Below, one piece after another: positions 27,897 to 63,372 of a stretch of DNA of 64,000 nt (its first letter is position 1; every line of letters begins with the position of its first letter). The DNA comes from a candidate division WOR-3 bacterium. Lineage in GTDB: Bacteria > Hydrothermota > Hydrothermia > LBFQ01 > DSFT01. Location of the stretch: contig CBFGJN010000001.1 in the NCBI GenBank assembly GCA_965649115.1, forward strand, positions 568 through 64,567. The letters run 5' to 3'. The notes beneath the pieces were generated by a model. It searched no databases and was not told the origin of the DNA. It was given only the letters and a program-made list of their open reading frames with translations. A program made the position numbers and the translations under genes.

Positions 27897-28032
27897 CTGT
27901 GTCTAGCCTAAAAATAAGGCTTCGCCTTATAAATGCCCATTTTTCGGCTATGGGAGGGCTTAAATTCAATAATTTCATTAAAAATTTTACAAGTTCTTGA
28001 TCGTCAAGGACTTAACACTATTTATTGGACAA
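27897..28032 (+). repeat. Compact repeat copy. Its 3' end overlaps the C-terminal codons of ORF 27987-28556.
   Basis: GCTGTGTCTAGCC … AAGGCTTCGCCTT (hairpin with swapped stem) … TTTTCGGCTATGGGAGGG … TCAAGGACTTAACACTATTTATTGGACAA. Confidence 0.7.
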
Positions 28033-29647: not shown

Positions 29648-29682
29648 ATTTAAAATTTTAAAGGAAAAAATTTTATTTATCT

Positions 29683-29800
29683 GCTGTGTCTAGGAATTCT
29701 AAAATCATTTATTTTTCACCCTTTAAATAAAGCTTCGCCCTAATAAAATCAATAATCTCAAAAAAGTTTTTATAAGTTTGTGTCTAATAATTAATACCCC
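29683..29800 (+). repeat. Compact or degenerate repeat copy plus a fragment
   Basis: GCTGTGTCTAGGAATTCTAAAATCATTTATTTTTCACCC … AAAGCTTCGCCCT … AAAATCAATAATC, then GTTTGTGTCTAATAATTAATACCCCCC. Confidence 0.6.
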
Positions 29801-31562: not shown

Positions 31563-31648
31563 TTTTAAAATTTTAAAGGATAGAGCTTAATTTATGAAAA
31601 ATTTAATGGGGGCGCCAGGAAGCTTAAATATCCTTTAAAATTTTAATT
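31563..31648. promoter_or_regulatory. Divergent pair of promoter-like palindromes (tRNA-Leu on the minus strand, kelch gene on the plus strand)
   Basis: TTTTAAAATTTTAAAGG at 31563-31579 lies 4 nt from the tRNA 5' end. CCTTTAAAATTTTAATT at 31632-31648 abuts the ATG at 31649. Confidence 0.55.
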
Positions 31649-38190: not shown

Positions 38191-38350
38191 ACCACTTACC
38201 TGCTTTGTTTAATAATTCTAAAATTATTTATTTTTCTTTATTTCCCCACCCACCCTAAAAATAAGCCTTCGGCTTATAAAAGCCCCTATTTTTTTTCAGG
38301 AGGCTTTGCCCCCTTATTAACCCCCATAAAATCAATAGGGACTTAAAATA
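38191..38350 (+). repeat. Repeat copy (3'-truncated)
   Basis: TGCTTTGTTTAATAATTCTAAAATTATTTATTTTT … CCCACCCACCCTAAAAATAAGCCTTCGGCTTATAAAAGCCCC … CCCCCATAAAATCAATAGGGACTTAAAA. Confidence 0.75.
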
Positions 38351-38351
38351 T

Positions 38352-38996
38352 CTATAAAAAATTATCTATGCTAACTTCAAAAACTTCTTTAAAAATTCTT
38401 TCATTAAGAAGTGTTGAATAAATTTTTCCATTTTTCATAATAATAAAATCTTTAAAATACTTAATTGCTAAATGAATATCGTGAATTGTTAAAATAACTG
38501 TCTTGTTAATTTGATTTAGGTAATTTAAGAGTTTTATTTGGAAGTAAGGATCCAAGTGAGATAATGGTTCGTCAAGTATTAAAATTTTTGAATCTGAATT
38601 AATAACTCTACTTAACCTAACTCTTTGAATTTCTCCACTTGAAAGTTCATCTAATTTTTTGTTTAATAGGTTTGATATTTCAAAAATATCATATTTTAGT
38701 TTTATATTTGCTAAATTTAAATATGTTTTAACTTTTATGCTTGGGCAATATTCAACTTGTAATAAAAAAGAACAAAGTCTTGTAAGTTCTTTTTGACTAA
38801 TTTCACTTAATTCTTTATTAAATAATTTTATAGAGCCTTCATAATTTAACATTTTTAGTAGGGTTTTTATAAGTGTGCTTTTACCACTTCCATTCGGACC
38901 TAAAATGGCAATTTTCTGTCCTTCGTAAATTTCTAAATTACCTATATGAATTTTAAAATTTTTATAACCTGAAATAACATTTTTTAATTTTAACAA
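38352..38996 (-). CDS. ABC transporter ATP-binding protein (short, single-domain)
   Basis: Walker A GPNGSGKST, signature LSSGE, Walker B ILILDEP. Confidence 0.8.
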   Translation of the reverse strand: MLKLKNVISGYKNFKIHIGNLEIYEGQKIAILGPNGSGKSTLIKTLLKMLNYEGSIKLFNKELSEISQKELTRLCSFLLQVEYCPSIKVKTYLNLANIKLKYDIFEISNLLNKKLDELSSGEIQRVRLSRVINSDSKILILDEPLSHLDPYFQIKLLNYLNQINKTVILTIHDIHLAIKYFKDFIIMKNGKIYSTLLNERIFKEVFEVSIDNFL

Positions 38997-38999
38997 TGC

Positions 39000-39620
39000 T
39001 TATATTTCTTTTCCGTGTTTAAAAATTTTACCTTCCATAAGAAAAATAACATCTTCACATATATTAGTACATAAATCTGCTATTCTTTCAAGATTTTGAA
39101 TAATGTTTATTGTCTTTATACCACTATCAACAAGATTTGAATTTTCCGTCATTAAACTGACAATTTTGTTAATCAGCTCATTTCTTAAATTATCAATTTC
39201 TTTGTCACCATTTAAAACTTCTCTTGCTATAACTAAATCATTATTCCTATATGAATTTATTGATTTTTGAAAGACATTGAAAACCTTTTCAAACAATTCA
39301 TCAATACTAATAATAACATTATCCTTTATTAGATAAAAGTCTCTTGCTATATTTTCAATATGGTCTGCTATTCTCTCTAAATCATTATTTACTTTAATAG
39401 CGGTTATGATTTTTCTTAAATCCATGGCTTCTGGTTGATACAATGCTAATATCCTTATTGCGAAAAATTCAATTTCAATTTCACTTTGATTAACACTATC
39501 TTCAAGTTTTAAAATTTCTTCATAATTATGACAATGTAAAAACATATTTTTTATAATATCTGACATCTGAAAAATTTTCTCTTCAAGTTCTTTCAATTCA
39601 TCAGAAAGGGGTTTTCTCAT
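39000..39620 (-). CDS. phoU: Phosphate transport system regulator PhoU
   Basis: Two PhoU repeats with a (D/E)LERIADH(I/A)ENIA block. Confidence 0.8.
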
Positions 39621-40375
39621 CCAAACCTTCCTGTTATATAATCTTCTGTTAGCTTTTGTTTAGGTCTAGTAAATATATCATCGGTTTTTCCATATTCTAT
39701 AATTTCTCCAAGGTACATAAAAGCTGTCCAGTCAGATACCCTTGCTGCTTGTTGCATATTATGAGTTACAATAACGATTGTCATTTTTTTACCAAGTTCC
39801 CTTATAAGTTCTTCAATTTTGGCAGTAGATATTGGGTCAAGGGCACTTGTTGGCTCATCAAATAATAAGACTTCTGGTTCAACCGCAATAGCCCTTGCTA
39901 TACATAGTCTTTGTTGTTGTCCGCCTGATAATGATAAGGCATTTTTGTTTAATTTGTCTTTTACCTCATCAAATAAATATGCGTCTTTTAGTGCTTTTTC
40001 AACCCTATCTTTAATTTCAGTTTTATTTTTTATTCCTTTAAGTTTAAGACCAAATGCGACATTATCAAAAATTGACATATTAAAAGGGGTTGGTTTTTGA
40101 AAAACCATTCCTATTCTCATTCTTAAACTTATGACATTTATATTATTTTTTAAAATATTTTCATTATCAAAAATAATTTCACCTTCATATTTCGTATTTG
40201 GATATAAATCGTGTATCCTATTTAAACATCTTAAAAATGTAGTTTTACCACATCCTGATGGACCAATTAGAGCGGTTATTTTGTTCTCAAAAATTTTCAA
40301 ATTTATGTTTTTAAGAACTTTTAAATTACCATAATAAAAATTTAAATTTTTGACCTCTATTTTGATATTTTCCAT
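39617..40375 (-). CDS. pstB: Phosphate ABC transporter ATP-binding protein PstB-like
   Basis: Walker [10 protein letters not shown], an [14 protein letters not shown] signature, and characteristic PstB length and C-terminus. Confidence 0.85.
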
Positions 40376-40380
40376 AAAGC

Positions 40381-40469
40381 TGAAATTTTAAAGGACTTTC
40401 TAAAATATGTGTATAATAAATTTTGAAACTATTCAAGGCGTATTAAAATAGACTTTAAAATTTTCGTCT
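40381..40469. promoter_or_regulatory. Divergent promoter-like palindromes for pstB (minus strand) and coxB (plus strand)
   Basis: GTCCTTTAAAATTTCAG at 40381-40394 in minus orientation and GACTTTAAAATTTTCGTCT at 40451-40469 abutting the coxB ATG. Confidence 0.55.
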
Positions 40470-41423
40470 ATGCTTTGGATAACCAACCTTTTTCCAAAGA
40501 TAGGTTCATCTTATGGCAAAGAAGTAGATAATTTATTTTGGTTTATTTTTTGGATTTCACTATTTTTCTTTTTAATTGTTCAAATTGCTATGATTTACTT
40601 TGTAATTAAGTATAGAAATAAAAAGGAGGAGGAAGTTAGCACTGTTGAAGGAAACAATTTTCTTGAAATAACTTGGACAATTATTCCAACGATTATTCTT
40701 GTTATTATATTCTTTTATGGAGTTTATGTTTTTGATAACTTCCAAAGAAGACCTCCCGCTAATAGTATAGAGATAAAAGTTATTGGTCATCAGTGGTGGT
40801 GGGAATTTCAATATCCAAATGGTTATACTACAAGAGATACACTTATTGTTCCTACTAATAAACCAGTAAAACTCATTATGACATCAACTGATGTAATTCA
40901 TAGTTTTTATGTAAGAAGTTTTAGAATTAAAGAAGATGCTGTTCCTGGAAGATATACTTGGACTTGGTTTAAAGTAGTTGAACCTGGTGTTTATGATATT
41001 CAATGTGCGGAATATTGTGGTTCAAGACATTCAAAAATGATAGGATATATTAAGGCTGTAAATAGAAGTGATTTTGAAACGTGGCTGGCAAGTGTTTCCA
41101 AAGAAACTGATTTATCTTCATTATCTCCTGTTGAGAAAGGTAAGAAATTATCTCAAATTAAAGGTTGTACAAGTTGTCATTCAGTTGATGGTTCTCAACT
41201 TGTAGGACCAACTTGGAAAGGATTATATAACCATGAAGTAGTTGTTTTAGAGAATGGAAAAGAAAAGAAGATATTAGCAGATGAAAATTATTTGAGAGAA
41301 AGCATATTAAATCCAAATGCTAAAATTGTCAAAGGTTTTCAAAATATAATGCCTTCTTATCAGGGTCAATTAAGTGAAGATGAGATTTTAGCAATCATAG
41401 AATATATAAAAAGTTTGAAGTAA
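40470..41423 (+). CDS. coxB: Cytochrome c oxidase subunit II with fused C-terminal cytochrome c (caa3-type)
   Basis: CuA ligands H…CAEYCGSRHSKM and a heme-c CTSCH motif. Confidence 0.9.
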   Translation: MLWITNLFPKIGSSYGKEVDNLFWFIFWISLFFFLIVQIAMIYFVIKYRNKKEEEVSTVEGNNFLEITWTIIPTIILVIIFFYGVYVFDNFQRRPPANSIEIKVIGHQWWWEFQYPNGYTTRDTLIVPTNKPVKLIMTSTDVIHSFYVRSFRIKEDAVPGRYTWTWFKVVEPGVYDIQCAEYCGSRHSKMIGYIKAVNRSDFETWLASVSKETDLSSLSPVEKGKKLSQIKGCTSCHSVDGSQLVGPTWKGLYNHEVVVLENGKEKKILADENYLRESILNPNAKIVKGFQNIMPSYQGQLSEDEILAIIEYIKSLK

Positions 41424-41439
41424 AAGGAGGGATTTAGAT

Positions 41440-43047
41440 ATGCTAAATAAACTTTTAAGCCATGAACCAAGACCTGGGATATTAGGTTGGTTGTTTTCAA
41501 CAGATCATAAGAGAATTGCCCTTCTTTATTTTTGGACAATAATTTTCATTTTCTTAATAGCGGGTATTTTCGCACTCTTAATAAGAACTGAACTTTTCTT
41601 ACCTGGAAAGCAAATTGTTGATTCTGATACTTATAATAGATTATTCACACTACATGGTGTAATGATGGTTTTCTTAGTTATTGTTCCTTTAATACCTGCG
41701 GTCATGGGCAATTATTTAATTCCGCTTATGATAGGAGCAAGAGATGTTGCATTTCCAAAATTAAATCTTTTGAGTTATTGGATATTTTTAACAGGTGTTA
41801 TTATTATCCTATCTTCACTTATATTTGGTGCTATTGATACAGGTTGGACATTTTATACACCATATAGTCTTAAGACAGGCGGTGGTGTTTTATTGGCGCT
41901 ATTTGGTGTTTTTGTTGTTGGTTTTTCATCTATTTTAACAGGTCTGAATTTTGTCGTTACAATTCATAGGTTAAGAGCACCTGGAATGACATGGAGCAAA
42001 TTACCCCTTTTCGTTTGGGCTTTATATGCTACTTCACTAATGAATGTTATTTCAACACCTGTTATTGGTATAACATTATTACTATTAATTTTGGAAAGGG
42101 TTTTTGGTGTTGGCTTCTTTGATCCTACAAAAGGTGGAGATCCTTTAATGTTTCAACATTTCTTTTGGTTTTATTCTCATCCCGTTGTTTATATAATGAT
42201 ACTTCCAGGAATGGGTATAATTTCTGAATTAATTGCAGTTCATTCAAGAAAAAGGATATTTGGTTATTGGGCAATGGCTGCTGCCATTTTTGGAATTGCT
42301 TTTATTGGTTTTATTGTTTGGGCTCATCATATGTTCGTTAGTGGTATGTCTGATGTTGCAAGGTGGGTATTTTCATTCTTAACATTTTTTGTTGCTGTTC
42401 CAACAGGTGTTAAAATTTTTAATTGGGTAGCTACACTTTATAAAGGTTCAATTAGATTAACAACACCTATGTTATTTGCTTTGTCATTCTTATTCCTTTT
42501 TACAATTGGTGGATTAACGGGATTATGGCTTGCTACTATTGCTACTGATGTTTATTTACATGACACATATTTTGTAGTAGCACACTTTCATTATGTAATG
42601 GTTGGAGGTGCTATAACTGCATTCTTTGGTGGATTGTTCCATTGGTTTCCTAAAATTACAGGTAGAATGTACAACGAAAATTGGGGTAGGTTAGGAGCGA
42701 TTCTTATATTTATAGGTTTTAATCTAACATTCTTCCCACAATTTCTCTTGGGTATGCAAGGTATGCCAAGAAGATATTGGGATTATTTACCTGAATTTAC
42801 ATTATTAAATCAAATATCTACAATTGGTGCATATACAATAGCTCTTGGTGTTTTCATTTCACTAATAACATTACTTATAGCTTGGAGAAGAGGACAAAAA
42901 GCTTCTGAAAATCCTTGGGGTGGTGCAACACTTGAATGGAAGACTTCATCTCCACCACCATATTATAATTTTGAAGAAATACCACATGTAGAACACGGAC
43001 CTTATGATTTTGAACATTTATTAAAGAAAGAAAAAGTTTCTCAATAA
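41440..43047 (+). CDS. coxA: Cytochrome c oxidase subunit I
   Basis: 12-TM heme-copper oxidase with WAHHMF and HFHYV blocks. AAGGAGGG RBS. Confidence 0.95.
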   Translation: MLNKLLSHEPRPGILGWLFSTDHKRIALLYFWTIIFIFLIAGIFALLIRTELFLPGKQIVDSDTYNRLFTLHGVMMVFLVIVPLIPAVMGNYLIPLMIGARDVAFPKLNLLSYWIFLTGVIIILSSLIFGAIDTGWTFYTPYSLKTGGGVLLALFGVFVVGFSSILTGLNFVVTIHRLRAPGMTWSKLPLFVWALYATSLMNVISTPVIGITLLLLILERVFGVGFFDPTKGGDPLMFQHFFWFYSHPVVYIMILPGMGIISELIAVHSRKRIFGYWAMAAAIFGIAFIGFIVWAHHMFVSGMSDVARWVFSFLTFFVAVPTGVKIFNWVATLYKGSIRLTTPMLFALSFLFLFTIGGLTGLWLATIATDVYLHDTYFVVAHFHYVMVGGAITAFFGGLFHWFPKITGRMYNENWGRLGAILIFIGFNLTFFPQFLLGMQGMPRRYWDYLPEFTLLNQISTIGAYTIALGVFISLITLLIAWRRGQKASENPWGGATLEWKTSSPPPYYNFEEIPHVEHGPYDFEHLLKKEKVSQ

Positions 43048-43059
43048 GGAGGCTTAGAA

Positions 43060-43686
43060 ATGGAGCATATTTTAGAACATAAACATATTGAAACTACTCA
43101 TAGAGATGATTTTTCTGCTAAACTTGGAATGTGGCTATTCCTTGCAACTGAATTACTTCTTTTTGCAGGTCTATTCACACTTTATTTTTTATTTAGAGGA
43201 ATATACTTACCATTTTTTCATGAAGGTCAAAAGGAACTTCAACCAATTATAGGACTTATAAATAGTATTGTTTTATTTATTGGAGGATTAACAGCAGTTT
43301 TATCTATATCAGCAGCAAGAAAAGATAATAAAAACCACTTAATTCTATTTCTTTTTATTACAATTCTAACGGGATTAACATTTCTTGGAATAAAAGCTTA
43401 TGAATATGGTTTGAAGTTTGAGCATGGTTTATTCTTTAATATGGAACACTTTAAAAGTTTGCCAAATGGTGAAAAAATTTTCTTTTCTTTATATTTTGTA
43501 ATGACTGGTATTCATGCTTTACACGTTTTAATAGGTGTTATATTATTTTCATTTTTGTTATTTTTTGCCATTAGAGGAGATTATAATTCAAAAAACTACA
43601 TTCAAGTAGAAATAGGGGGATTATATTGGTGTCTTGTTGATTTAATATGGATGTATCTTTTTCCTCTTTTATATTTAATTAAGTAA
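43060..43686 (+). CDS. coxC: Cytochrome c oxidase subunit III
   Basis: Five to seven TM helices. The MWLFLATE and GIHALHVLIG blocks are typical of subunit III. Confidence 0.8.
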   Translation: MEHILEHKHIETTHRDDFSAKLGMWLFLATELLLFAGLFTLYFLFRGIYLPFFHEGQKELQPIIGLINSIVLFIGGLTAVLSISAARKDNKNHLILFLFITILTGLTFLGIKAYEYGLKFEHGLFFNMEHFKSLPNGEKIFFSLYFVMTGIHALHVLIGVILFSFLLFFAIRGDYNSKNYIQVEIGGLYWCLVDLIWMYLFPLLYLIK

Positions 43687-44444
43687 TGGATTTTTTAAAA
43701 AAATTTTTTGAAGTTTTATATAATTTTAATGCTTTTAAGGAAATTTCAAGTAAGAACTACATTTTGCCATCTATATTATTTTTTATAATTTCCACGATAA
43801 CATTCAATAGCTTGAAAATTTCACTAAATTACGATAAATATAGAGAACTTATGTTAAATCAAATGGATACTAATCTTAATGAAATAAAGAAAAATTTGAA
43901 AAAGCAGGATTTAACTACACAAGAGATTGAAAAACGCCTTGAAAATTATAAAAATGTTTATTTGGCTTCAATATCACTTGAAATTATTATTCTTTCTGAA
44001 ATAGCAAAGGGAATTTTTATCCAACCTATTATTCTTTTAATTCAGTCTCTTGCTTTCAGTTTGATATTTTTAATTTTTTCAAAAGTTCAAATAAAATTAG
44101 AATTTAAGAAATTATTTTCAATTTTAATTTATTCAAAATCTCCAATTATTATAGGCTCATTTATTGTTTTTATTTTATCAGTTATTCTACAAAATCCATT
44201 CTTTTCTTTAAATTTTTCAAATTTTATTCCTTATGAGATTGTTTCAAATAATGATTATTTAAAGGCTTTAAGAAATACACTTTATCATGTTGAACCATTT
44301 TCAATTTTAAGTTTAATTTTGCTTTCTTTTGGAATAAATAAAGCTTTTGAATTTCCACTAAAAAGTGTTATTTATGGTGTTTTTGTTATATATTTTTCAT
44401 TTTTGATTTTAAATGCTTTGTTCTATCTAATTTTTTTTAAATGA
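43686..44444 (+). CDS. Hypothetical membrane protein co-transcribed with the cox operon
   Basis: Overlapping start/stop with coxC. Multi-TM. Confidence 0.4.
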   Translation: MDFLKKFFEVLYNFNAFKEISSKNYILPSILFFIISTITFNSLKISLNYDKYRELMLNQMDTNLNEIKKNLKKQDLTTQEIEKRLENYKNVYLASISLEIIILSEIAKGIFIQPIILLIQSLAFSLIFLIFSKVQIKLEFKKLFSILIYSKSPIIIGSFIVFILSVILQNPFFSLNFSNFIPYEIVSNNDYLKALRNTLYHVEPFSILSLILLSFGINKAFEFPLKSVIYGVFVIYFSFLILNALFYLIFFK

Positions 44445-45424
44445 AACGGATAATTTTTTTATTTTTGTTATCTTGTTCAAAAGTTGATATTATTCCAAAA
44501 ATTTCAATTAGTCCAAATCCTTCCCAATCAAATAGTTATGTAAATATATTACTTGACATTCCTGATACTTTAAAAAAATTTGATAAGTACTTGGTTGTCC
44601 ATTTCATTTATAAAAATAGTAAGGAAAGGAAAGTTATTAAATTAAATGATGAAAAAATTTATCAGATTTATCTTCCTGAAAGTTTGATTAATTATTCAGT
44701 TTATTTAATTGTTGATACATTTAATGCAAAAGTTGAAGGTATTAGGGTTTATGATGGTTCAAAACCGAAAGAAGGAACATTTTTTATTTCTTCAAGTTAT
44801 ACAAAAAATGATAGTGAAAAATTAGCTCTTATTGAAAAAGAATTAACATTTTATCCTAATAACATTAAAGCAAGAGCATATTATGATTGTTTGAAAGGAA
44901 TTAAAAATAATGTTAGTGAAATTTATGAAATTTATTATAATATATGTAAAAATGAAAATGATTATCAAAGCATTTATAAAGCGCTATATTATGGTGATAG
45001 TTCTTATGAATTTTTATTGAAATTGGCAAGTGTTTCAGATACTATTCTTGAAATTGCATCAAAAAAATTTCCTGATGATATTCAAATTCAAATGATGAAA
45101 TTAAAAAAGTTAAATGAAAAAAATAGATTTAACGAAGCTATTATTTATTCCGACTTTATATTACAGAACTTAAATATTGAGTGGTTATATAAATTTTTTC
45201 CAAATTTAAATTATATTGAGAGAAACAGAAAGTTTTTTGAAAATTTTTCAAATGTTTATAAATTAAGAGCAATGGCATATTTGAAATTGAACGATAGTTT
45301 AAAATATAAAGAAAATTTTTTACTTTATTGCCTAAATTATCCTAATGAAAGTGAAGTTTACGAAGAGTGTAAAAGTTTTGATAGATTTTTAAATAAAATA
45401 AAGAAAAAGGAGAAGAAAAAATGA
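44441..45424 (+). CDS. Hypothetical lipoprotein (TPR-like)
   Basis: Lipobox FLLSCSK. Confidence 0.4.
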   Translation: MKRIIFLFLLSCSKVDIIPKISISPNPSQSNSYVNILLDIPDTLKKFDKYLVVHFIYKNSKERKVIKLNDEKIYQIYLPESLINYSVYLIVDTFNAKVEGIRVYDGSKPKEGTFFISSSYTKNDSEKLALIEKELTFYPNNIKARAYYDCLKGIKNNVSEIYEIYYNICKNENDYQSIYKALYYGDSSYEFLLKLASVSDTILEIASKKFPDDIQIQMMKLKKLNEKNRFNEAIIYSDFILQNLNIEWLYKFFPNLNYIERNRKFFENFSNVYKLRAMAYLKLNDSLKYKENFLLYCLNYPNESEVYEECKSFDRFLNKIKKKEKKK

Positions 45425-45972
45425 ATAGAGAGTGGGCTATAAATTTAGTTAAACAACATATAAAGAAACCTAATCTTATAAAGCATGTTATAGCGGTTGG
45501 AGGGTGTATGAGGAGACTTGCTAATTATTTTAATGAAAATGAAGAAAGATGGGAAATAGCAGGAATTTTACATGACTTGGATTATGAATATACAAATGAA
45601 GATCCTCAAAATCATCCTGAAATGGGTGTTAATATATTAAGGGCGTTAGGTTTTAATGATGAAGAAATTTTACATGCTATTTTAGCCCATAATAATAAAG
45701 TTCCTCTTGAAACACTAATGGACAAGGCACTTTATTTATCTGACCCAACAAGTGGATTTATTGTTGCTTGTGCTTTAATTTTACCTCAAAAAAATTTAGA
45801 TTATGTTGATGTTGATTTTATGTTAAGAAGGTTTAAAGAAAAGTCATTTGCAAAAGGAGCTAATAGAGAACAGATATTAAGGTGTAAAGAACTTTTAAAT
45901 TTGGAATTAAGTGAATTTCTTAATTTATGTCTTGAAGGTTTGAAACTTGTTAGAAGTGAGCTTGAATTATGA
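45421..45972 (+). CDS. HD-domain phosphohydrolase
   Basis: Metal-ligand motifs KH…ILHDLDY…AILAHN. Confidence 0.7.
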   Translation: MNREWAINLVKQHIKKPNLIKHVIAVGGCMRRLANYFNENEERWEIAGILHDLDYEYTNEDPQNHPEMGVNILRALGFNDEEILHAILAHNNKVPLETLMDKALYLSDPTSGFIVACALILPQKNLDYVDVDFMLRRFKEKSFAKGANREQILRCKELLNLELSEFLNLCLEGLKLVRSELEL

Positions 45973-46934
45973 TTGTTGATACAATTGTTTTTTCATTTGT
46001 AGGCGATATAATGATTACGAATAACTATCCATTTTCTGAAAAATTGCCATCTTACGAAGTTTTTAAAAATTCGGATATTGCTTTTGGAAATCTTGAAGGT
46101 CCAATAATTGAAAATGGTAAATCTACAAAATGTTCAGAAGAAAGTATAAAATTAAAAAAATGTTTTGCATTTAAGATGCCAAAAATTTCTGCAATTTATT
46201 TAAAAGAAATGGGTTTTAATGTTTTAGCATTAGCTAATAATCATATTTTAGATTATGGAATTGAAGGCATAGAATCAACAAAGAAAATGCTTGATAGTGT
46301 TAAAATTAACTATTGTGGAACTAATAAAGAAGATAATGCTTATGTAATTTTGAAAGTTAGGAACACGAAAATTGGTATTATTTGTTTTGACCATAATCCT
46401 ATTTCTCCCAGTGTAAATGATATTGAATATTCAAAAAAAATTGTTAGAGATTTAAGAAAAAATGTAGATATTTTGATTGTTTCATTTCATGGAGGAGCAG
46501 AAGGTTCAAATGCTCAAAGGGTTAAGGATGGAAATGAGTACTTTTATGGTGAAAATAGAGGAAATTTAAAATTGTTTTCAAGAATTGTAATTGATGAAGG
46601 TGCTGATTTAGTAATAGGTCATGGACCTCATGTTTTAAGAGGTATGGAAGTTTATAAAAATAAATTAATAGCTTATTCACTTGGTAATTTCTTGACTTAT
46701 GAACATTTTAATCTTTCGGGTAATCAATCAATTACTTGTGTTTTACAAGTTAAACTAACTTCAAAGGGTGAATTTGTTGAAGGCAAAATTTATCCTTTTA
46801 AACTTTTTGGCATTGGTTTATTAAGAGAAGATAATGATAAAAATGCAATAAAAATTATTAAGAAACTATCAGAATTGGATTTTCCAGAAACTAAACCTAT
46901 TATTCTTGATGATGGAACAATAAAATTAAAATAA
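45969..46934 (+). CDS. CapA/PgsA-family metallophosphatase (capsule biosynthesis protein-like)
   Basis: FGNLEGP, ALANNHILDYG and GHGPHVLRG blocks. Confidence 0.75.
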   Translation: MIVDTIVFSFVGDIMITNNYPFSEKLPSYEVFKNSDIAFGNLEGPIIENGKSTKCSEESIKLKKCFAFKMPKISAIYLKEMGFNVLALANNHILDYGIEGIESTKKMLDSVKINYCGTNKEDNAYVILKVRNTKIGIICFDHNPISPSVNDIEYSKKIVRDLRKNVDILIVSFHGGAEGSNAQRVKDGNEYFYGENRGNLKLFSRIVIDEGADLVIGHGPHVLRGMEVYKNKLIAYSLGNFLTYEHFNLSGNQSITCVLQVKLTSKGEFVEGKIYPFKLFGIGLLREDNDKNAIKIIKKLSELDFPETKPIILDDGTIKLK

Positions 46935-46937
46935 ATA

Positions 46938-47960
46938 ATGAAGTTAATTTTTCTTATTATCTTTTCTTTCCATTTATTTTCCTTAATCATTGCCATTTAT
47001 AAATTCTTCTCAATTAAAAAATTAAAAAGAAACTATCAAAATAACTTTAATAGAATCTCTATTTTAATTCCTGCGAGAAATGAAGAAAGAAACATAGAAA
47101 GAATTTTAAATTCTATTAAAAATTTAGATTATGAAAATTACGAAGTTTTAATTTATGATGATTTATCAGAAGATAGGACTTATGAAATTGCTAAAGGTTT
47201 TGAAAGTGAAAAAATAAGAGTTATAAAGGGATTTGATAAGCCAAAAGAATGGGTTGGTAAAAATTTTGCTCTTTATAATCTTGTAAAATTTTCAAGTGGA
47301 GAAATTTTATTATTTTTAGATGCAGATATTGAAATCAAAGATAAGGAGATTTTAAAAAAAATTTCAGAAAATATAAATGATGATGTTATTACAGGTTTTG
47401 GAAAATTTGAAGGATATGGAAAATTTATATTATCTATTGTTCCTTATTTATTTTCAATAATCCCAATAAATTTGGGTTTAAATGGTCAATTTTGGGCAAT
47501 TAAAAAAAACATTTATTTAAAATACAATCCTCATCTTTTATTTAAAAACGAAATTCTTGAAGATGTTAAAATTGGAAATTATCTAAAAATGAAGGGAATT
47601 AAGGTTAAGTTTTATGATTTGAAAGATGTGTTTGAAGTCAGAATGTACAATAATTTTAATGAATTACTTGAAGGTCTTACAAAAAATTCTTATAGAATGT
47701 TTGGAAAATTTTTAACACCAATTGCACTCATTTTTTATATTTTATTTTTCATATTACCATTTTTAAAATTTTGGAAAATTGGATTTATAGTTATCTTTGT
47801 AAAATTTATTTCGGATTTTAAGTTTGGCTTTTCAATTAAAGAAACAATTTTATCACCAATTGGTTTTATGATATTTGGAATAATTATTTTAAGGTCTTGG
47901 ATTTTTTCTATTTTAAATAGAATTTATTGGAAAGGTAGAAAATTGGAAACTAAATTGTGA
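46938..47960 (+). CDS. Glycosyltransferase family 2 (membrane-anchored)
   Basis: ISILIPARNEE, YDDLSEDRT and LDAD (DxD) motifs. C-terminal TM helices. Confidence 0.8.
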   Translation: MKLIFLIIFSFHLFSLIIAIYKFFSIKKLKRNYQNNFNRISILIPARNEERNIERILNSIKNLDYENYEVLIYDDLSEDRTYEIAKGFESEKIRVIKGFDKPKEWVGKNFALYNLVKFSSGEILLFLDADIEIKDKEILKKISENINDDVITGFGKFEGYGKFILSIVPYLFSIIPINLGLNGQFWAIKKNIYLKYNPHLLFKNEILEDVKIGNYLKMKGIKVKFYDLKDVFEVRMYNNFNELLEGLTKNSYRMFGKFLTPIALIFYILFFILPFLKFWKIGFIVIFVKFISDFKFGFSIKETILSPIGFMIFGIIILRSWIFSILNRIYWKGRKLETKL

Positions 47961-47984
47961 GTTAATGTTAAGTTTTTCATTATA

Positions 47985-48527
47985 AATAAGTTATTTTCGA
48001 GTGGGTGGGGAAAATAAAGTTGCTTTGTTCAATAAAAATTTTAAGAAAACTATTGATTTTAGCGGGTTTTTAAGGGGGGCAAAGCCCCCCATAACCGAAA
48101 TAGACACAGCAAATATATTTTGCTTTGTCCAGTAATTATTGTCAATCACTTGATAATCAATAACTTATAAAATTTTTAGGGAAATTATAGATTTCATTAG
48201 GGGGATTTTAGGGGGGCGAAGTCCCCCACAGCCTAAAAATGGGCATTTTAAAGCCGAAAGCTTTTATTTAGGGTGAGCGAGGAAAAATAGTAAAATAAAT
48301 AATTTTAGAATTATTAGACACAGCAAATATATTTAACTTTGTCTAGTAATTGGTGTTAAGTTATTGATAATCAATAATTTGTGAAAACTTAATAAAATTA
48401 TTGTCTTTATGGGGGTTTTAAGGGGGGCGAAGCCCCCCATAGCCGAAATATGGGTATTTTAAAGCCGAAGGCTTAATTTTAGGGTGGGTGGGAAAAATAA
48501 ATGGTTTTAGAATTACTAGACACAGCA
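47985..48527 (-). repeat. Array of three reverse-orientation repeat units plus a leading fragment, separated by a constant AATATATTT(T/A) spacer
   Basis: Units approximately 48011-48111, 48122-48325 and 48336-48527. Each starts (T)GCTTTGTYYARTAA and ends AGACACAGCA. The GGGGGGC(A/G)AAG(C/T)CCCCC hairpin is present in all. Confidence 0.8.
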
Positions 48528-48561
48528 AATATATTTATCAATTCTACTTTAAAATTTCATT

Positions 48562-48747
48562 ATGAAAAAAATTTTAATAATTATAATTTTTTTACTTTCT
48601 TGTGAGAAAGAAGCTGATATTATAATAGAAAAAAATGGCTCTGTAATTATAAAAAGTAAAAGAATTAAATGCGAAAAAGAAAAATTCCTTTTTTGGGAAA
48701 CAGGTAGATTGAAATGTTATATTGTAGAGGAAAAAGGGAGAAAATAA
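48562..48747 (+). CDS. Small hypothetical lipoprotein
   Basis: Lipobox FLLSCEK. The promoter palindrome CTTTAAAATTTCATT abuts the ATG. Confidence 0.4.
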   Translation: MKKILIIIIFLLSCEKEADIIIEKNGSVIIKSKRIKCEKEKFLFWETGRLKCYIVEEKGRK

Positions 48748-48749: not shown

Positions 48750-50207
48750 ATGTTGCTTTTATTTCTTTTTGGAAGTTTTTCATTAATTTTAACTCAATAT
48801 CCATTTTATTTTTTTCCAGCAAGCTTATTTGCTTTTGTTCCACTGCTTATTATAACGAAAAATTTTGATAATAAAAGGACATTTTTTATAAGTTTTCTTT
48901 ATACCTTTCCATTTTTTTTTATTCATTTAAATTGGTTGTACAATTTAGATGTAGGTAAAAGTCTTGGGGTTTTATTAGTGATTGGTGTTAGTTTTATGAT
49001 AATTTTAAGAACAATTTTATTTTGTATTTGGTTTTTATTATTTAGAAAATCAAAAAGTCCTATTATTTTTGGACTTTCATTTACAGTCTATGAATGGATT
49101 ATTTCATATTGGTTATTTGATTTATCACTTCCTTGGGCAAATTATTATTATTCATCACTTGGTTTTTTAATATATGCTCAAATTAGTTCAGTTTTTGGTC
49201 CTCATTTCATAACATTTTCTCTTATTACATTCAATTATGCACTTTATCTCTCAATTGAAAGAAGGATTAATATATTGCCATATTCATTTTTTATACTAAT
49301 TATAGTAATTTTTGGTATCTTTTGGAAGAATTTTAAAATTAAAGAAAATGATTATTTAAGAGTTGCTATTATTCAACCAAATGTCCTTCCAAGATATGCT
49401 TATGACCCGATGGAATGGAAAGAGACAAGAGAAGCATTTTCAATTCTATTAGATTCCATAAAAAATAAAAATTATGATATTTTAGTTTTGTCTGAATCAG
49501 CAATACCTGGAATTTATCCTCAAAATTATTGGAATTTTGAACTTGTTAATAAAATTTTAAAAGAAACAAAAAGGCCAATTCTAATGGGAAGTGCTCGTGA
49601 GGAAGATGGTAATTATTATAATACAGCTCTTTTAATTGATACAACTGGAAAAATTGTTGATTTTTATGATAAAGTTCATATTGTTCCTTTTGGTGAAAAT
49701 CTACCATTTTATGAATATCTTCCAAATTTTATTAAAAATTTAGATTTAGGTCAAGGCAATTACAAGAAGGGAAAATTTTTCAAACCTATTAATTTTAATG
49801 AACAAAAAATTGGTGTTATGATATGTTATGAAAGTATATTTCCTGAAATTTCAAGAAGCTTAGTTAGGAATGGTTCAAATGTTCTTTTTGTTATAACGAA
49901 TGACGGATGGTTTGGTCCTTCAACAGGACCAAGAGAACATTATTTATTTTCAAAATTGAGAGCTATTGAAACAGGAAAATTCATTGTTAGGAGTGCAAAG
50001 ACTGGTATTTCTGCTATTATAAATGATAAGGGAGAGACAATTAAGGAGATAGATTTATTTAAAAGAGGATATTTAATTGAAAATGTTCCAACTAATGACT
50101 ATAAAACATTATATTCTTATATTGGAGAATCTTGGATTTTCGTTATTTTCTTGCTTTTAGTGATTTTAAAATTTCTTCAAATTTTCCATAAAAATTCTCA
50201 TAACTAA
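48750..50207 (+). CDS. lnt: Apolipoprotein N-acyltransferase
   Basis: N-terminal TM domain plus a C-N hydrolase domain (ICYESIFPE with catalytic Cys; E…K…C triad). The likely start is at 48750 after an AAGGGAG RBS rather than at 48714. Confidence 0.85.
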   Translation: MLLLFLFGSFSLILTQYPFYFFPASLFAFVPLLIITKNFDNKRTFFISFLYTFPFFFIHLNWLYNLDVGKSLGVLLVIGVSFMIILRTILFCIWFLLFRKSKSPIIFGLSFTVYEWIISYWLFDLSLPWANYYYSSLGFLIYAQISSVFGPHFITFSLITFNYALYLSIERRINILPYSFFILIIVIFGIFWKNFKIKENDYLRVAIIQPNVLPRYAYDPMEWKETREAFSILLDSIKNKNYDILVLSESAIPGIYPQNYWNFELVNKILKETKRPILMGSAREEDGNYYNTALLIDTTGKIVDFYDKVHIVPFGENLPFYEYLPNFIKNLDLGQGNYKKGKFFKPINFNEQKIGVMICYESIFPEISRSLVRNGSNVLFVITNDGWFGPSTGPREHYLFSKLRAIETGKFIVRSAKTGISAIINDKGETIKEIDLFKRGYLIENVPTNDYKTLYSYIGESWIFVIFLLLVILKFLQIFHKNSHN

Positions 50208-56226: not shown

Positions 56227-57138
56227 ATGATAATTGTTCATGGTGGTGCAGGTGAATGGAATGAAGAAAAATTTAAAATTGCTGAAAAAATTTTAATTAA
56301 AGCAGTAGAAGAAGCATTAGAAATTTTAAGAAAAGATGATGACCCTATAACTGCTTGTGAAACAGCTATTAAAATTCTTGAAGATGAACCTATCTTTAAT
56401 GCAGGAACGGGAAGTGTTTTGAATATATTTGGTGAGGTTGAAATGGATGCAAGCATTATGCGTGGAGATAATTTAAAAGCAGGGGCTGTTGCAGGTATTA
56501 AAAATATTAAAAATCCAATCAGTTTAGCAAGGAAAATTATGGAAGAAACTGAACATGTTTTAATAATTTCAGAAGGCGCTCAAAAACTTGCTAAAACCTT
56601 TGGATTTGAAGAATATAATCCTATTACAGATGAAAGTATTGAAAAGTACAAAAAGGCAAAAGAAAATTTTGATAAAATTAATAGTTTGAAACATATTAAA
56701 GAATTTATGGAAAAATATCCAAATTATTTCATTGGAACTGTTGGAGCAGTTGTTGTAAATAGTAAGGGAGTTATTGTAAGTGGTTCTTCAACAGGTGGGA
56801 CAATTTTAAAATTAAAGGGTAGAGTTGGAGATACACCCTTAATTGGTGCAGGAATATATGCTAATGATGTTTGTGGAGCAAGTGCAACAGGAATAGGAGA
56901 GGGCATAATTAGAGTAAATTTAAGTTCATTTGTTTGTTATTTAGTTAAATTTGGAGTTTCAGTTGAAAATGCTACAAAAAGTGCTATTGATTATTTAACT
57001 CAAAAAGTAAATTTGCCAGCAGGTATTATTGCTGTTGATAAATATGGAAATGTAGGATTTTATCATAATACAAAATATATGCCTGTTGCCTACTATAAAG
57101 ATGGTGAAATTCAAACAAAATTTAGTTGTTTTGTCTAG
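56227..57138 (+). CDS. Isoaspartyl peptidase / L-asparaginase (Ntn-hydrolase)
   Basis: Autoproteolytic GTVGAVVVN site (Thr nucleophile) and GAGI/GGT blocks. Confidence 0.85.
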   Translation: MIIVHGGAGEWNEEKFKIAEKILIKAVEEALEILRKDDDPITACETAIKILEDEPIFNAGTGSVLNIFGEVEMDASIMRGDNLKAGAVAGIKNIKNPISLARKIMEETEHVLIISEGAQKLAKTFGFEEYNPITDESIEKYKKAKENFDKINSLKHIKEFMEKYPNYFIGTVGAVVVNSKGVIVSGSSTGGTILKLKGRVGDTPLIGAGIYANDVCGASATGIGEGIIRVNLSSFVCYLVKFGVSVENATKSAIDYLTQKVNLPAGIIAVDKYGNVGFYHNTKYMPVAYYKDGEIQTKFSCFV

Positions 57139-57250
57139 TAATTCCAATTTCGGTTATGGGGGGCAAAGCCCTCTTAACCCCCGATAAATCAACTATTTTA
57201 AGGACTTAACAATAATTACTGAACAAATAGTTCGGCTGTGGGGCTGAGCA
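57139..57250 (+). repeat. Partial repeat copy (3' portion)
   Basis: TTCGGTTATGGGGGGCAAAGCCC … CCCCCGATAAATCAAC … AAGGACTTAACAATAATTACTGAACAAA. Confidence 0.6.
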
Positions 57251-57262
57251 ATTTAAAGAACT

Positions 57263-58660: not shown

Positions 58661-58699
58661 AATATATAAAATTTTAAAGTTTAATGTTGATTTTTTTGT

Positions 58700-58903
58700 G
58701 CCTTGTCCAATAATTCTGGAAATATAATTATTTCTATATTTTCCCACCCGCCCTAAAAATAAGCCTTCGGCTTTAAAAAACCCCATCTTTTGCTATGGGG
58801 GGCTCTGCCCCCCATAAAGTGCCCCCATTATTTCAAGTATTTCAATTAATACTTAATAAGTAGTTGATTATCAATCACTTAGCAATAATTATTGGACAAA
58901 GCA
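58700..58903 (+). repeat. Full-length repeat unit
   Basis: GCCTTGTCCAATAATTCTGG … CCCACCCGCCC … AAGCCTTCGGCTT … GGGGGGCTCTGCCCCCC … TTGATTATCAATCA … AATTATTGGACAAAGCA. Preceded by ATTTTTTTGT. Confidence 0.8.
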
Positions 58904-58913
58904 AGAGTTAGTT

Positions 58914-59116
58914 GCTGTGTCTAAGAATTCTGAAAGTATTTATTTTTCTTATTTTGCCCACCCGCCCTGAAATAAAGGCTACGCCTTTAAAATGCCCATT
59001 TTTCGGCTGTGGGGGGCTCCGCCCCCCATTAGATCCCCCATAAAATCAATAGTTTTATTGAAATTTTCGTAAGTCATTGATAATCAAGGATTTAACAATA
59101 ATTATTGGACAAAGCA
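58914..59116 (+). repeat. Full-length repeat unit (tandem to the previous one)
   Basis: GCTGTGTCTAAGAATTCTGAAA … CCCACCCGCCC … AAAGGCTACGCCTTT (stem-swapped hairpin) … GGGGGGCTCCGCCCCCC … AATTATTGGACAAAGCA. Followed by ATTTTTTTGT. Confidence 0.8.
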
Positions 59117-59126
59117 ATTTTTTTGT

Positions 59127-59200
59127 GCTGTGTCCAGTAATTCTGAAATATAAAATAATTCTTTTTCCCCCGAAAAATCAAGAGTTTTAATTAACAATAT
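59127..59200 (+). repeat. 5' fragment of a third tandem repeat unit
   Basis: GCTGTGTCCAGTAATTCTGAAATATAAAATAATTC. Confidence 0.6.
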
Positions 59201-59207: not shown

Positions 59208-59225
59208 GCTTTAAAATTTTCAAAC
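59208..59225 (+). promoter_or_regulatory. Promoter-like palindrome GCTTTAAAATTTTCAAAC immediately upstream of the riboswitch
   Basis: The riboswitch P1 stem begins 1-2 nt after the motif. Confidence 0.55.
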
Positions 59226-59226
59226 A

Positions 59227-59366
59227 TGCAGGCGACAGGGAAGAGGGGTGAAATTCCCCCGCTGTCCCAGCAGCCGTGATGGGCATAAAAATTGCCCCTG
59301 AAAGCCACTGCCGAAAGGTGGGAAGGCTCAGGGGTTTTTAGCCCTAAGCCGGAAGACCTGCCTGCA
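59227..59366 (+). promoter_or_regulatory. Cobalamin (AdoCbl) riboswitch
   Basis: P1 TGCAGGC…GCCTGCA. Conserved AGGGAAGAGGGGTGAAATTCCCC, GCCACTG and GGGAAGGC elements. B12 box AAGCCGGAAGACCTGCC. A downstream hairpin CCCTTCCTG…CAGGAAGGGG can sequester the GGAGG RBS. Confidence 0.85.
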
Positions 59367-60841
59367 TGCTTCAAAACCCTTCCTGCTGGGGTTCAGGAAG
59401 GGGGGAGGTTGTAAGCTTGCTTGATACTATAATTGTTATAGATACTTTTAGATTTTTTTATAAAATTGATAGTTTAAGTAAATTTTCAGATTTTAGGGAA
59501 GTTTTTAGACAGAATAGTTCTATTATTTTTAGAGAACTTTCTAATAGGATTGTAGTTTCAATAAGAGGACTTGAAGATAAGCAAAATGAAGTTTATTTAA
59601 ATGGTGTAAAATTGAATAATCCAATTTGGGGATTTTTTTATGCTAATGCTTTACCTTTAAATTTAATAAGTTCTTCAAACGTTATTCTGAATAATTATAG
59701 AGTAAATTTTGAAATTTCAGGGGAGAAAGAAATTGGATTTTTTATTGGCTCATATAATAAATTTTCAATGTACTATAAAAATGGAACTTTTGGAATTGAA
59801 AGAACATATAATGAAAATAATTACAGATATTGGGATAGTTTTAATAGGGAATATCAAAGAAAAAATAATTTTGAAGATAAAATTGGAGGATTTTTAAATT
59901 TTAAGAATTTAAGCATCATTTTTTATGATGGAATTTTTGGAATGCCATTAAGAGGATATGGTAATGAAGGAAGCGATTTTGAAATTTATAAAGGTTTAAT
60001 TTTAAGTTATAAAAATCATTATTTTAATTATCAATTCTATCGCTATAATTATGAAAAACCCTATGAAAGCTATATATTGGATCTCAATTATTTCCAAGTA
60101 GTTTTTTCAAATATGGAAGAATTTCACAAAAGATTTATTTTCAAAATGCCTTTCAAATATCTTGGTTATTTTTCAATAGTTTTAGATGAAAACAATTTCA
60201 AATTTGACTATTTAATTTCAAAAGCTTTTAGGTATCATAATTTTATTTTTGAATTAGCACTAAAAAGAAGAATTCCAAATTTTTCTGAATTATATTATAA
60301 AAGTAATTATGCAATTGGAAATCAAAGCTTAACCCCTGAAAATTTTTACACATTACAAATGAAATATAAACTTTTTGACATTTTTATAACTTATATTCAA
60401 AATCCTATTTTATGGCTACCTGATGAAAATTATTGGAAAGCTCAAAACTTAAATTATTTATTTTTATATGGTTTTGAAATGGATTATAATTATAGATTTT
60501 TAGAGTTTTCAGTTTCTTATATCAAAAATAAGCTTTCAAATAACATGATATTGCCATATAGACCAAATTTAACAATTTCAGCCTCTATAAATTACAATTT
60601 TAGCTCTTTCTTGAAAGATAAATTAGTTTTTATATATTATTCAAAAAGACCAAGCTATTATTATCCTTCAAGTTTTTATTTAGAACCAATTTTAATAATA
60701 GATTATTATAAATTCTTTGAGTTTAAAAAGTTTTTCTTCTACATTTACTTTAAAAATCTTTTAAATAAATCTTATGAGTTTATAAAAGGCTATCCTATGG
60801 AAAGCTTTTCTTTAAACATAAAAGGAGGTTTAAAGTGGTAG
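59366..60841 (+). CDS. TonB-dependent outer-membrane receptor, BtuB-like (start uncertain; no recognisable signal peptide)
   Basis: The TonB-box-like DTIIVIDTFRF aligns with BtuB DTLVVTANRF. Plug motif VSIRGLEDKQNEVYLNGVKLNN. C-terminal aromatic (…GGLKW). A candidate TTG start at 59417 lies 8 nt after GGAGG. Confidence 0.6.
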   Translation: MLQNPSCWGSGRGEVVSLLDTIIVIDTFRFFYKIDSLSKFSDFREVFRQNSSIIFRELSNRIVVSIRGLEDKQNEVYLNGVKLNNPIWGFFYANALPLNLISSSNVILNNYRVNFEISGEKEIGFFIGSYNKFSMYYKNGTFGIERTYNENNYRYWDSFNREYQRKNNFEDKIGGFLNFKNLSIIFYDGIFGMPLRGYGNEGSDFEIYKGLILSYKNHYFNYQFYRYNYEKPYESYILDLNYFQVVFSNMEEFHKRFIFKMPFKYLGYFSIVLDENNFKFDYLISKAFRYHNFIFELALKRRIPNFSELYYKSNYAIGNQSLTPENFYTLQMKYKLFDIFITYIQNPILWLPDENYWKAQNLNYLFLYGFEMDYNYRFLEFSVSYIKNKLSNNMILPYRPNLTISASINYNFSSFLKDKLVFIYYSKRPSYYYPSSFYLEPILIIDYYKFFEFKKFFFYIYFKNLLNKSYEFIKGYPMESFSLNIKGGLKW

Positions 60842-61920: not shown

Positions 61921-63074
61921 TAAACCTTATAGTTAGCTATGGAGCGTTTGTTATTGGTCAAAGTACAAAACAAGTTTATATTATATATCAAAATCAGATT
62001 GTTGATAGCTTTCCAACTGGAACAAGAGCTGTTCCAAATTATCTAATATCTTTTGGTGATACTTTTCTTATTGTGAATTCTGGTGGATTTTCAGATAATG
62101 GCTCAATTGCTTTTATAAAGAATAAAAACATCATATATGAACTTTTACTTCCAAGCTTTATGAATCCTATGGAAGCTGTTAAGGTAAACAACAAAATATA
62201 TTTTACTGATTTTGGAGATACTTTTAATGATAAAATTTACATTATTCAAAATTACCAAATTATTGATTCAATAAAGGTTTATAAAAGACCAAGTTCAATA
62301 GCTTATTGTTTTGGCTATATCTTTTCTACTTCAACGGGGATAAATAGTGATTATAGTTATGACGATTCGTCATTTGTTCATAAAATAAATCCTTCAAACA
62401 ATAGTGTTTTGAACTTAAAGCTTCGCTCAAATGCTAATGGTGTAAAATGTGATAATAATTATGTTTATGTAATGACAAGTGGAACTTATGATAATAATTT
62501 CAATCCTTTAAACAATTCAACAATTTATAAAATAAATCCACTGACATTTCAAATTATTGATTCTACAAAAAATTTAGAAAATGTTTCAAGTTTTGCTGTT
62601 GGTAATAATTATATTCTTGTTGGTGTTTGGAAATTTGATAGTGTAAAAGTTTATAAAATAAATAAAAATAATTTTAGTTTAATTGATAGTTTCAAATTAA
62701 ATTATGGTGGCCTTGGAGGGATTGATTTTGATGGTCAATTTTTTAAATTTTCACTTGGTGGATTTACAGGTGGTCCAAATGTAATTTATGTTTTAAAAGA
62801 AAGTGATAATACTTCATATTATTTTATTCATCATAATAGTGATGTTGGAAGTGGATTTATTAAAGGATTTATTAGTTTATCTAATTACGAGGTCGTTAAA
62901 AATAAAGTTGGAAACGGAATTATTCATTTCTCAAAAATTCAAGAAATCTATGTTTATGATATTTCAGGAAGAAAAATCCTTCATTTAAGAGATAATAAGT
63001 TAAATTTAAGAAGTTTAAATAATGGCGTTTATATTATTAAAACTGATGAAGGATATTTGAAAATTTTAAAATAA
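61917..63074 (+). CDS. Beta-propeller-like surface protein with a T9SS C-terminal domain (possible BtuG-like B12-binding protein)
   Basis: Overlapping ATGA start. Repeated (Y/F)x(T/V)D-type blade motifs (IYFTDFGD, YVYVMTSG). C-terminus NGVYIIKTDEGYLKILK. Confidence 0.4.
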   Translation: MINLIVSYGAFVIGQSTKQVYIIYQNQIVDSFPTGTRAVPNYLISFGDTFLIVNSGGFSDNGSIAFIKNKNIIYELLLPSFMNPMEAVKVNNKIYFTDFGDTFNDKIYIIQNYQIIDSIKVYKRPSSIAYCFGYIFSTSTGINSDYSYDDSSFVHKINPSNNSVLNLKLRSNANGVKCDNNYVYVMTSGTYDNNFNPLNNSTIYKINPLTFQIIDSTKNLENVSSFAVGNNYILVGVWKFDSVKVYKINKNNFSLIDSFKLNYGGLGGIDFDGQFFKFSLGGFTGGPNVIYVLKESDNTSYYFIHHNSDVGSGFIKGFISLSNYEVVKNKVGNGIIHFSKIQEIYVYDISGRKILHLRDNKLNLRSLNNGVYIIKTDEGYLKILK

Positions 63075-63089
63075 ATTGAGATAAACTTT

Positions 63090-63372
63090 ATTGGGGGTAG
63101 GGTTTTAAGGGAGTCCCCCCATAGCCTAAAAATGGACATTTAAAAGATGGATTTTTTAAAGCTGTGGGCTTAATTTTTAGGATAGGTAGGCAAAATATAG
63201 AAATACAATAACTTATAAATTTTTAAGGAAATTGTTAATTTATTGGGGGAAATTAAGGGGGGCGAAGCCCCCCACTGCCGAAAAATGGGTATTTTTAAGC
63301 CGAAGGCTTAATTATAGGGTGGGTGGGCAAAATATAGAAATGAATATATTTTTAGAATTATTGGACACAGCA
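63090..63372 (-). repeat. Two reverse-orientation repeat units
   Basis: GGGAGTCCCCCCATAGCCTAAAAATGG … and GGGGGGCGAAGCCCCCCACTGCCGAAAAATGGGTATTTTTAAGCCGAAGGCTTAATTATAGGGTGGGTGGGC … TTTTTAGAATTATTGGACACAGCA. Confidence 0.75.

Follow-up and report, generated by a model that had tools for sequence, protein, structure and literature searches.

Head-to-tail stacks of a small non-autonomous transposon in a candidate division WOR-3 bacterium point to serial insertion at a fixed distance from host promoters

The array considered here is intergenic: it is preceded by a family-2 glycosyltransferase gene (46938-47960, +) and followed by a 61-codon open reading frame (48562-48747, +) and then by lnt (48750-50207, +). 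All positions refer to the window, the whole 64-kb stretch of DNA that was analysed, which comes from an uncultured bacterium of hot springs and has a G+C content of about 27%. A previous sequence-only reading had described reverse-orientation units lying head-to-tail at this locus, each followed by the same short sequence, and direct reading of the DNA confirms this description. Positions 47992-48536 hold four minus-strand copies of an approximately 205-bp element with terminal inverted repeats. The oldest of these, U0 (47992-48016), is a 5'-truncated fragment covering approximately consensus positions 35-62, identified by an nhmmer match and by reading the sequence, and it adjoins U1 without a spacer. 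U1 (48021-48111, from sequence reading and the profile search) is an internally deleted copy of 91 bp with both termini intact. U2 (48121-48325) is full length at 205 bp and 86% identical to the family consensus, and the promoter-proximal copy U3 (48335-48527) measures 193 bp, is 90% identical to the consensus and has a mutated right terminus that reads GTT, not GCA.

The constant spacer that had been claimed is likewise present, with a length of exactly 9 bp. At 48112-48120, 48326-48334 and 48528-48536, all read directly, the sequence is AATATATTT (AAATATATT in the orientation of the element), in each case coming after the ...AGACACAGCA end of a minus-strand unit. These 9-mers are copies of a target-site duplication, the last being the copy on the promoter side; the chance of two identical 9-mers at the base composition of the window is 2.1e-5. 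Beyond it, a 10-bp linker, ATCAATTCTA, leads to the host promoter motif CTTTAAAATTTCA (together 48537-48559, +), which ends 2 nt ahead of the ATG of the 61-codon open reading frame. The junction formed by U1, the spacer and U2 is identical in two independent assemblies (L016, NCBI GCA_965648865.1; L017, Logan SRR27730029), both of whose contigs break inside the array, past this junction. L016, a short-read MAG contig (CBFGIO010000030.1) that was compared with window positions 38340-48220, is 10.2 kb long, approximately the distance from the array to the previous element at 38201-38340. This suggests that, in this lineage, short-read assemblies break up at the elements.

A profile built from four units and searched against the window located the family at approximately 14 loci on both strands, with many copies truncated or internally deleted. 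Full copies are about 205 bp long, contain no open reading frame, start with TGCTGTGTCYAATAATT and finish with AATTATTGGACAAAGCA. Their terminal inverted repeats are 17 bp in length; the ends pair at 15 of 18 positions, and across copies 87% of cells pair. In RNA folding, the terminal repeats of a copy pair to close a stem that encloses internal hairpins. Of these hairpins, AAGCC-N3-GGCTT is retained in 98% of cells and GGGGGGC-N3-GCCCCCC in 91%, some of the changes being compensatory. Five different perfect 9-mer duplications were found at five loci (the window together with the sister-taxon contig L056), and none at several older copies. As terminal repeats and locus-specific direct repeats of a constant 9 bp flank these small, non-coding and dispersed copies, the element is a MITE, a non-autonomous DNA transposon, with a 9-bp target-site duplication. 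The variation of the 9-mer between loci rules out both its being part of the element and site-specific recombination with a common core. An Rfam search of the array returned no match at gathering score or E-value thresholds.

Two further features of the element sequence were observed. All copies concentrate G/C runs (CCCACCCACCC, the G6/C6 hairpin and CCCCC) in an otherwise A+T-rich genome, as at 48411-48499, and their reverse strand, with at least four G-runs, could adopt a G-quadruplex. At element positions of approximately 146-161, many copies (for example 24690-24705 of the window) hold the near-palindromic, promoter-like sequence TTAAAAATTTTATAAG, whose reverse strand includes TAAAAT. This sequence, which only about half of the copies have conserved, might drive transcription towards the adjoining gene.

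Two origins had been put forward for the array: repeated insertion into the regenerated target-site duplication of an earlier copy, or amplification by slippage or recombination. In the latter case a block of one unit plus spacer would be amplified locally in tandem, by slippage or unequal recombination, and diverge later, which would fit the head-to-tail order and the constant period of approximately 213 bp. Alignment of the units argues strongly against this. Neighbours are 69-77% identical (U2-U3 and U1-U2 77% each, A-B of a second array described below 75%, 2572-2787 69% and 63372-63205 72%), and identity to distant units reaches 85-90%, as serial insertion predicts; many non-neighbour pairs are 80-90% identical. 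Neighbours are thus no closer to each other than to unrelated copies, and are never sisters: in neighbour-joining (NJ) bootstraps they paired in 0.3% (U2-U3), 10% (A-B), 0% and 3% (the other pairs) of replicates. There are no private variants common to U1, U2 and U3, and the internal deletions are independent between units. A and B do have two private variants in common, which is a point in favour of local amplification, with unrelated pairs reaching a maximum of four; the inner spacer of A-B, however, is unlike its flanks. The spacers of the reported array are identical at 27 of 27 bases while its units differ at 23% of sites, and duplication followed by 23% divergence would leave both extra spacers intact with p ~0.009. 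Finally, all six unit-unit junctions with intact termini measure exactly 9 bp; five of these come from the window and the sixth from a contig of the sister taxon.

On the basis of neighbour identity, bootstraps, private variants, spacer identity and the 9-bp junctions, local amplification is rejected, and we consider it a very improbable origin for the array. Neither are these loci tandem duplications or satellites, in which neighbours are most alike and have private mutations in common. The divergence of the units also rules out formation of an IS circle or an (IS)2 dimer. Insertion into the regenerated duplication, as the sequence-only reading proposed, is therefore supported, with two amendments: the site is re-used mainly for its fixed distance to a promoter motif, rather than through attraction by the 9-mer or by the earlier copy, and a second array is better explained by insertion of a two-unit composite in one piece.

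This second array (58690-59125) had been said to show the same pattern. The spacer length bears this out, as all three are 9 bp long; the sequence does not, since the spacers are not all alike (ATTTTTTTG at 58690-58698, AGAGTTAGT at 58904-58912 and ATTTTTTTG at 59117-59125). The promoter motif of the GT2/deacetylase gene (gene start 58660), a 10-bp linker and the first ATTTTTTTG together span 58667-58698 on the minus strand. They are followed on the plus strand by units A (58699-58903) and B (58913-59116), separated by the inner spacer, and then by the second ATTTTTTTG with a truncated and internally deleted unit C (59126 to ~59190), the two spanning 59117-59190 (+). The A-B dimer is therefore bounded on both sides by ATTTTTTTG. 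Because the outer 9-mers match and the inner spacer is AGAGTTAGT, the array is better explained by an A-B composite that inserted as one piece beside the older, truncated unit C and would have carried its inner spacer along from its former site.

A third array on the plus strand (2541-2924) repeats the arrangement of the first. It consists of the motif (2541-2553), TTAAAGATT (2563-2571), a full unit (2572-2777), TTAAAGATT again (2778-2786) and a truncated unit (2787-2924). The sister-taxon contig L056 holds a further stack with an identical spacer, in the order motif, TAGAGTACAT, ACTAATTCT, unit, ACTAATTCT and older unit. Two fused copies lie at 63063-63372 (-), the proximal one at 63206-63372 and the distal one at 63063-63205. 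The units at window positions 1-293 form an array of a different kind from these 9-bp-spaced stacks: they are 5'-truncated, fused head-to-tail without terminal repeats or spacers, and run off the start of the window.

To place these arrays in context, the motif beside them has to be considered. The window contains a very strongly conserved motif, CTTTAAAATTT(T/C), that includes a -10-like hexamer, TAAAAT. All 20 of its 20 exact CTTTAAAATTT sites precede an open reading frame start, a tRNA or a riboswitch, at 4-38 nt before the open reading frame start or, for tRNA-Gly and tRNA-Leu, with 7 nt left to the mature 5' end. At most genes the ATG follows 4-8 nt after the motif, and from these short gaps most genes appear to be leaderless. 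A fuller form, tatSCTTTAAAATTT(T/C), without a clear -35 element, is seen for example at 23677-23689 (-), 31566-31578 (-) and 40453-40465 (+). One motif stands just ahead of a cobalamin riboswitch (59213-59379; Rfam, 85.8 bits), which is G+C-rich, follows the motif directly and lies upstream of a TonB-dependent receptor-like gene (59366-60841). We take the motif to be a host promoter signal, since relatives in which no element copies were found, 74-85% identical at the protein level and named candidate division WOR-3, carry it at equal density, 3-4 per 10 kb. That it belongs to the element is ruled out by the same comparison, by the duplications, which lie between the motif and the element, and by the unrelated 10-bp linkers.

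Among the leading copies, 10 of 15 in the window and 4 of 6 in a sister taxon (contigs L052, L056 and L057) have their left end 18-19 bp from CTTTAAAATTT, and the left end always faces the motif. Both distance and orientation are read directly from the DNA. The window loci are 2572, 11612, 18737, 24828, 27896, 29682, 48527, 52174, 58699 and 63372, and the excess at 18-19 bp has a binomial p < 1e-16 even when only intergenic DNA is counted. From one locus to another, the 10 bp beside the motif show no relationship, and the duplication occupies the 9 bp that follow. Solo copies and arrays keep the same distance to the motif, and it is for this reason that we prefer promoter distance over attraction by the 9-mer or an earlier copy. 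Three minus-strand loci have a left end 19 bp from a motif: the copy at 11434-11612 (motif at 11632), which is accompanied by decayed distal remnants so that the whole spans 11312-11612; the copy at 24646-24828 beside the gcvP promoter motif, which is the nearest of all to the consensus (95%) and has no recognisable target duplication; and the fused pair at 63063-63372 (motif at 63392).

The sister taxon, represented by contigs from Yellowstone and other metagenomes, has a SerS 92% and a GT2/deacetylase 94% identical to those of the window. Of its contigs, L057 carries one copy 18 bp and another 19 bp from the motif, and on L052 the serS promoter is accompanied by a copy at 18 bp. This promoter bears an element in the window as well, but neither copy ranks among the eight closest relatives of the other, which makes it a case of recurrent use of one site. 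Within stacks, promoter-proximal units are closer to the consensus than distal ones (91 versus 74%, 88 versus 76% and 90 versus 86%) and usually more complete, and truncations fall at the distal end; the A-B dimer reverses this gradient, its proximal unit A being the more diverged (81 versus 88%). Based on the fixed distance, its repetition in the sister taxon, the occupancy of serS and the proximal-unit gradient, position with respect to the promoter appears to define the target, which lies at approximately -34 to -26.

A number of copies depart from this arrangement. A remnant at window 8162 and a copy at L052 position 105 lie at 10-11 bp, and copy 38201 lies at 46 bp. Two loci, 294-450 and 57127, are off promoters; the former (285-459 with its flanks, +) has a perfect 9-bp duplication, ATTACTTGA, at 285-293 and 451-459. 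At window 18483 and L057 position 125 the motif is fused to the left end and the terminal TG is lost, and several leading copies (11612, 24828, 27896 and L052 901) have no recognisable duplication. These exceptions are compatible in outline with age, deletions, composite moves and recombination. As separate observations, the shift of the minor 10-11 bp class (window 8162-8187 and L052 105) from 18-19 bp corresponds approximately to one duplication length or about one helical turn, and the fused junctions, AAAG|CTGTGTC and AAAG|CTTTGTC (window 18470-18484; L057 113-135), occur at unrelated loci in two taxa. Either a microhomology deletion that recurred or a third class of insertion may lie behind the AAAG|CTKTGTC junction.

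Comparison with the sister taxon was also used to look for sites before insertion. Remnants of the element at 57127-57262 (+), where the asparaginase and GT2/deacetylase genes face each other with their 3' ends, are absent from L056; there the convergent genes overlap, and the boundaries are not clean. The GT2/deacetylase promoter of the sister taxon is without an element; it has a divergent epimerase promoter 17 bp away and a different neighbouring gene. A clean empty site with a single 9-mer was recovered in neither of these window-sister comparisons. A search through Lnt homologues likewise gave no empty site for the reported array, as gene order is not conserved, and exact Lnt look-ups were without a match. 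Exact-pattern scans of genome and metagenome contigs with TGCTGTGTCYARTAATTCT yielded only chance single matches, the pattern being too strict, since sister-taxon copies read TGCCTTG or TGCTTTG.

Considering these results together, we think it probable that the stacks arose by promoter-directed serial insertion of a MITE mobilised by an IS903-like enzyme, with the newest copies nearest to the promoter. In this model, the approximately 205-bp MITE would be mobilised in trans by an IS5-family, IS903-like DDE transposase encoded outside the window. Insertion would take place into a 9-bp target 11-19 bp upstream of CTTTAAAATTT, that is at approximately -34 to -26 given the -10 hexamer TAAAAT within the motif, with the left end facing the promoter. 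The staggered cut would double the 9-mer and leave the promoter-side copy at the same distance from the motif, so that the site could be used again. Each new element would then enter between the promoter and the previous element, pushing the older ones away, and the expected outcome is a head-to-tail stack with identical 9-bp spacers in which the youngest copy sits beside the promoter and older copies decay distally. Adjacent copies may also move jointly as a composite, as proposed for the A-B dimer.

We infer that the fixed distance reflects a tether or ruler, either a promoter-bound protein or reading of the motif itself, rather than selection. More specifically, and as a tentative suggestion only, the transposase or a partner may read the host promoter (the -10 motif or the bound RNA polymerase holoenzyme) and insert the element upstream of it, always in the same orientation and at a distance of one to two helical turns. 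If so, this would be a bacterial DNA transposon with base-pair-precise, promoter-tethered integration, following a logic like that of Ty3, which integrates at Pol III start sites; the classes at approximately 0, 10-11 and 18-19 bp would then correspond to consecutive turns of the helix along one face of the DNA.

The main alternative explanation of the fixed distance, which we regard as unlikely, accepts serial insertion and attributes distance and orientation to selection. Landings would be near-random, and only those outside the core promoter would survive or be favoured, for example through termination of read-through by the element or through an AT-rich upstream region that it brings along. 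The -35 site is indeed the nearest point that spares the core promoter, and short intergenic regions leave few permissive sites. In addition, the promoter-ward strand of the element has hairpins followed by T-rich tails, the hairpins are maintained by compensatory changes, and selection of elements as, for example, upstream terminators or insulators could sharpen the distribution of distances. Random insertion plus selection would nevertheless hardly produce a distance that varies by a single base (18-19 bp) over 14 independent loci of the two taxa, or re-use of an identical 9-mer three times. A second or third insertion has no obvious benefit, and copy 294 and the remnants at 57127 indicate that other intergenic positions are tolerated.

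Another possibility is that the transposase is drawn to the left end of a resident element, as in IS30-type targeting of inverted repeats, with the promoter incidental. New units do always lie 9 bp from a resident left end, and copy 294 lies 16 bp from a resident right end. This explanation seems improbable to us, as it leaves unexplained both the first or solo copies at 18-19 bp from the motif and the growth of arrays on the promoter side only.

The parent element was sought within the available DNA. Pfam scans found no transposase domain in any window open reading frame of at least 100 aa, and neither the window nor approximately 60 kb of sister-taxon DNA contained a transposase, an autonomous copy or a long element bounded by the ends. 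For comparison, IS903 was taken from plasmid NZ_CP031809.1 (1057 bp, with the 18-bp repeat GGCTTTGTTGAATAAATC). In register, 13 of the 18 positions of this repeat agree with each of the two element ends, with an estimated, uncorrected p of ~3e-4 for a comparison that was picked after inspection of the ends; the ends may thus be related. IS903 makes 9-bp duplications (PMC2577343), as does the element. The element differs in its terminal bases (TGC, where IS903 has GGC), in a very distant host (WOR-3) and in the absence of the IS903 target consensus, WTTYA-N9-TRAAW (PMC2577343); by eye, the 5-bp flanks at 294, 2572, 48527 and 58699 match this consensus at 2-4 of 5 positions with no consistent pattern. 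From the ends and duplication length, we propose as parent an IS5-family, IS903-like element with a putative DDE transposase that would act in trans.

In terms of insertion architecture, the nearest precedent is the ISAba32 subgroup of the IS1202 family, whose members form tandems at Xer sites. They insert at XerCD sites at a fixed distance and in one orientation, and the conserved site survives (bioRxiv 10.1101/2022.12.17.520857), so that fixed distance, single orientation and a preserved landmark are features in common with the element described here. The likeness is one of architecture. Members of the subgroup are autonomous IS that make 5-6 bp duplications and abut the recombinase site, whereas the element of the window is a 205-bp MITE whose 9-bp duplication is set 10 bp away from a promoter -10 motif. 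Tandems of the Drosophila P element and R1, together with bacterial IS dimers, have been explained by "double insertion" at a preferred site (bioRxiv 10.1101/158386). These too have the target duplication in the junction, and P-element dimers occur at promoter hot spots; the P element and R1 tandems are, however, eukaryotic, mostly near-identical dimers, and lack base-pair-precise promoter spacing.

IS5 inserts recurrently at one position and in one orientation upstream of the E. coli promoters glpFK, bgl, flhDC and fucAO (PMC5493358), which is similar to the repeated upstream insertions seen here. The E. coli cases are, in contrast, single loci under selection, far upstream and with a 4-bp YTAR target, and have been put down to DNA destabilisation and regulator occupancy with no genome-wide distance rule (PMC5493358). 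Insertion of Tn7 at attTn7 is likewise oriented, occurs at a fixed distance from a recognised sequence and leaves that sequence intact, and Tn7 has TG...CA termini (PMC11014353). Tn7 makes a 5-bp duplication, uses a dedicated targeting protein and has a target immunity that blocks second insertions (PMC11014353), whereas here the duplication is 9 bp and repeated insertion at the same site is the rule. The element is therefore not Tn7-like.

Stacks with identical duplications, built by serial targeted insertion, have been described for a small number of autonomous IS, among them the IS1202 family at Xer sites (bioRxiv 10.1101/2022.12.17.520857), and stacking of this kind is not mentioned in a 2024 review of prokaryotic MITEs (PMC10969869). 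What is new here is that the stacked element is a MITE rather than an autonomous IS, that the duplication is 9 bp, that the landmark is the promoter -10 motif, and that approximately half of the strong promoters sampled in the window carry an element at the same base-pair distance, a rule that holds in two taxa. The interest of the system rests chiefly on this promoter-anchored, oriented and repeatable targeting. If the distance does reflect targeting, the system would offer a natural setting in which to study how a promoter or RNA polymerase positions a DDE transposase, an inbuilt chronology of the insertions at every promoter and a possible path to a compact promoter-directed integration tool.

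Two observations concern the neighbourhoods of the copies. At the serS, lnt and GT2/deacetylase loci, comparison of the window with L048, L052, L053 and L056 revealed that gene neighbours change exactly at the element-bearing intergenic regions, which suggests that the elements mark, or promote, rearrangement breakpoints. Between the copies at 27896-28036 and 29682-29782 lies a two-gene module (27987-29647, -) that encodes an AAA_15/AAA_21 ATPase and a DUF3226 protein and resembles an anti-phage defence pair.
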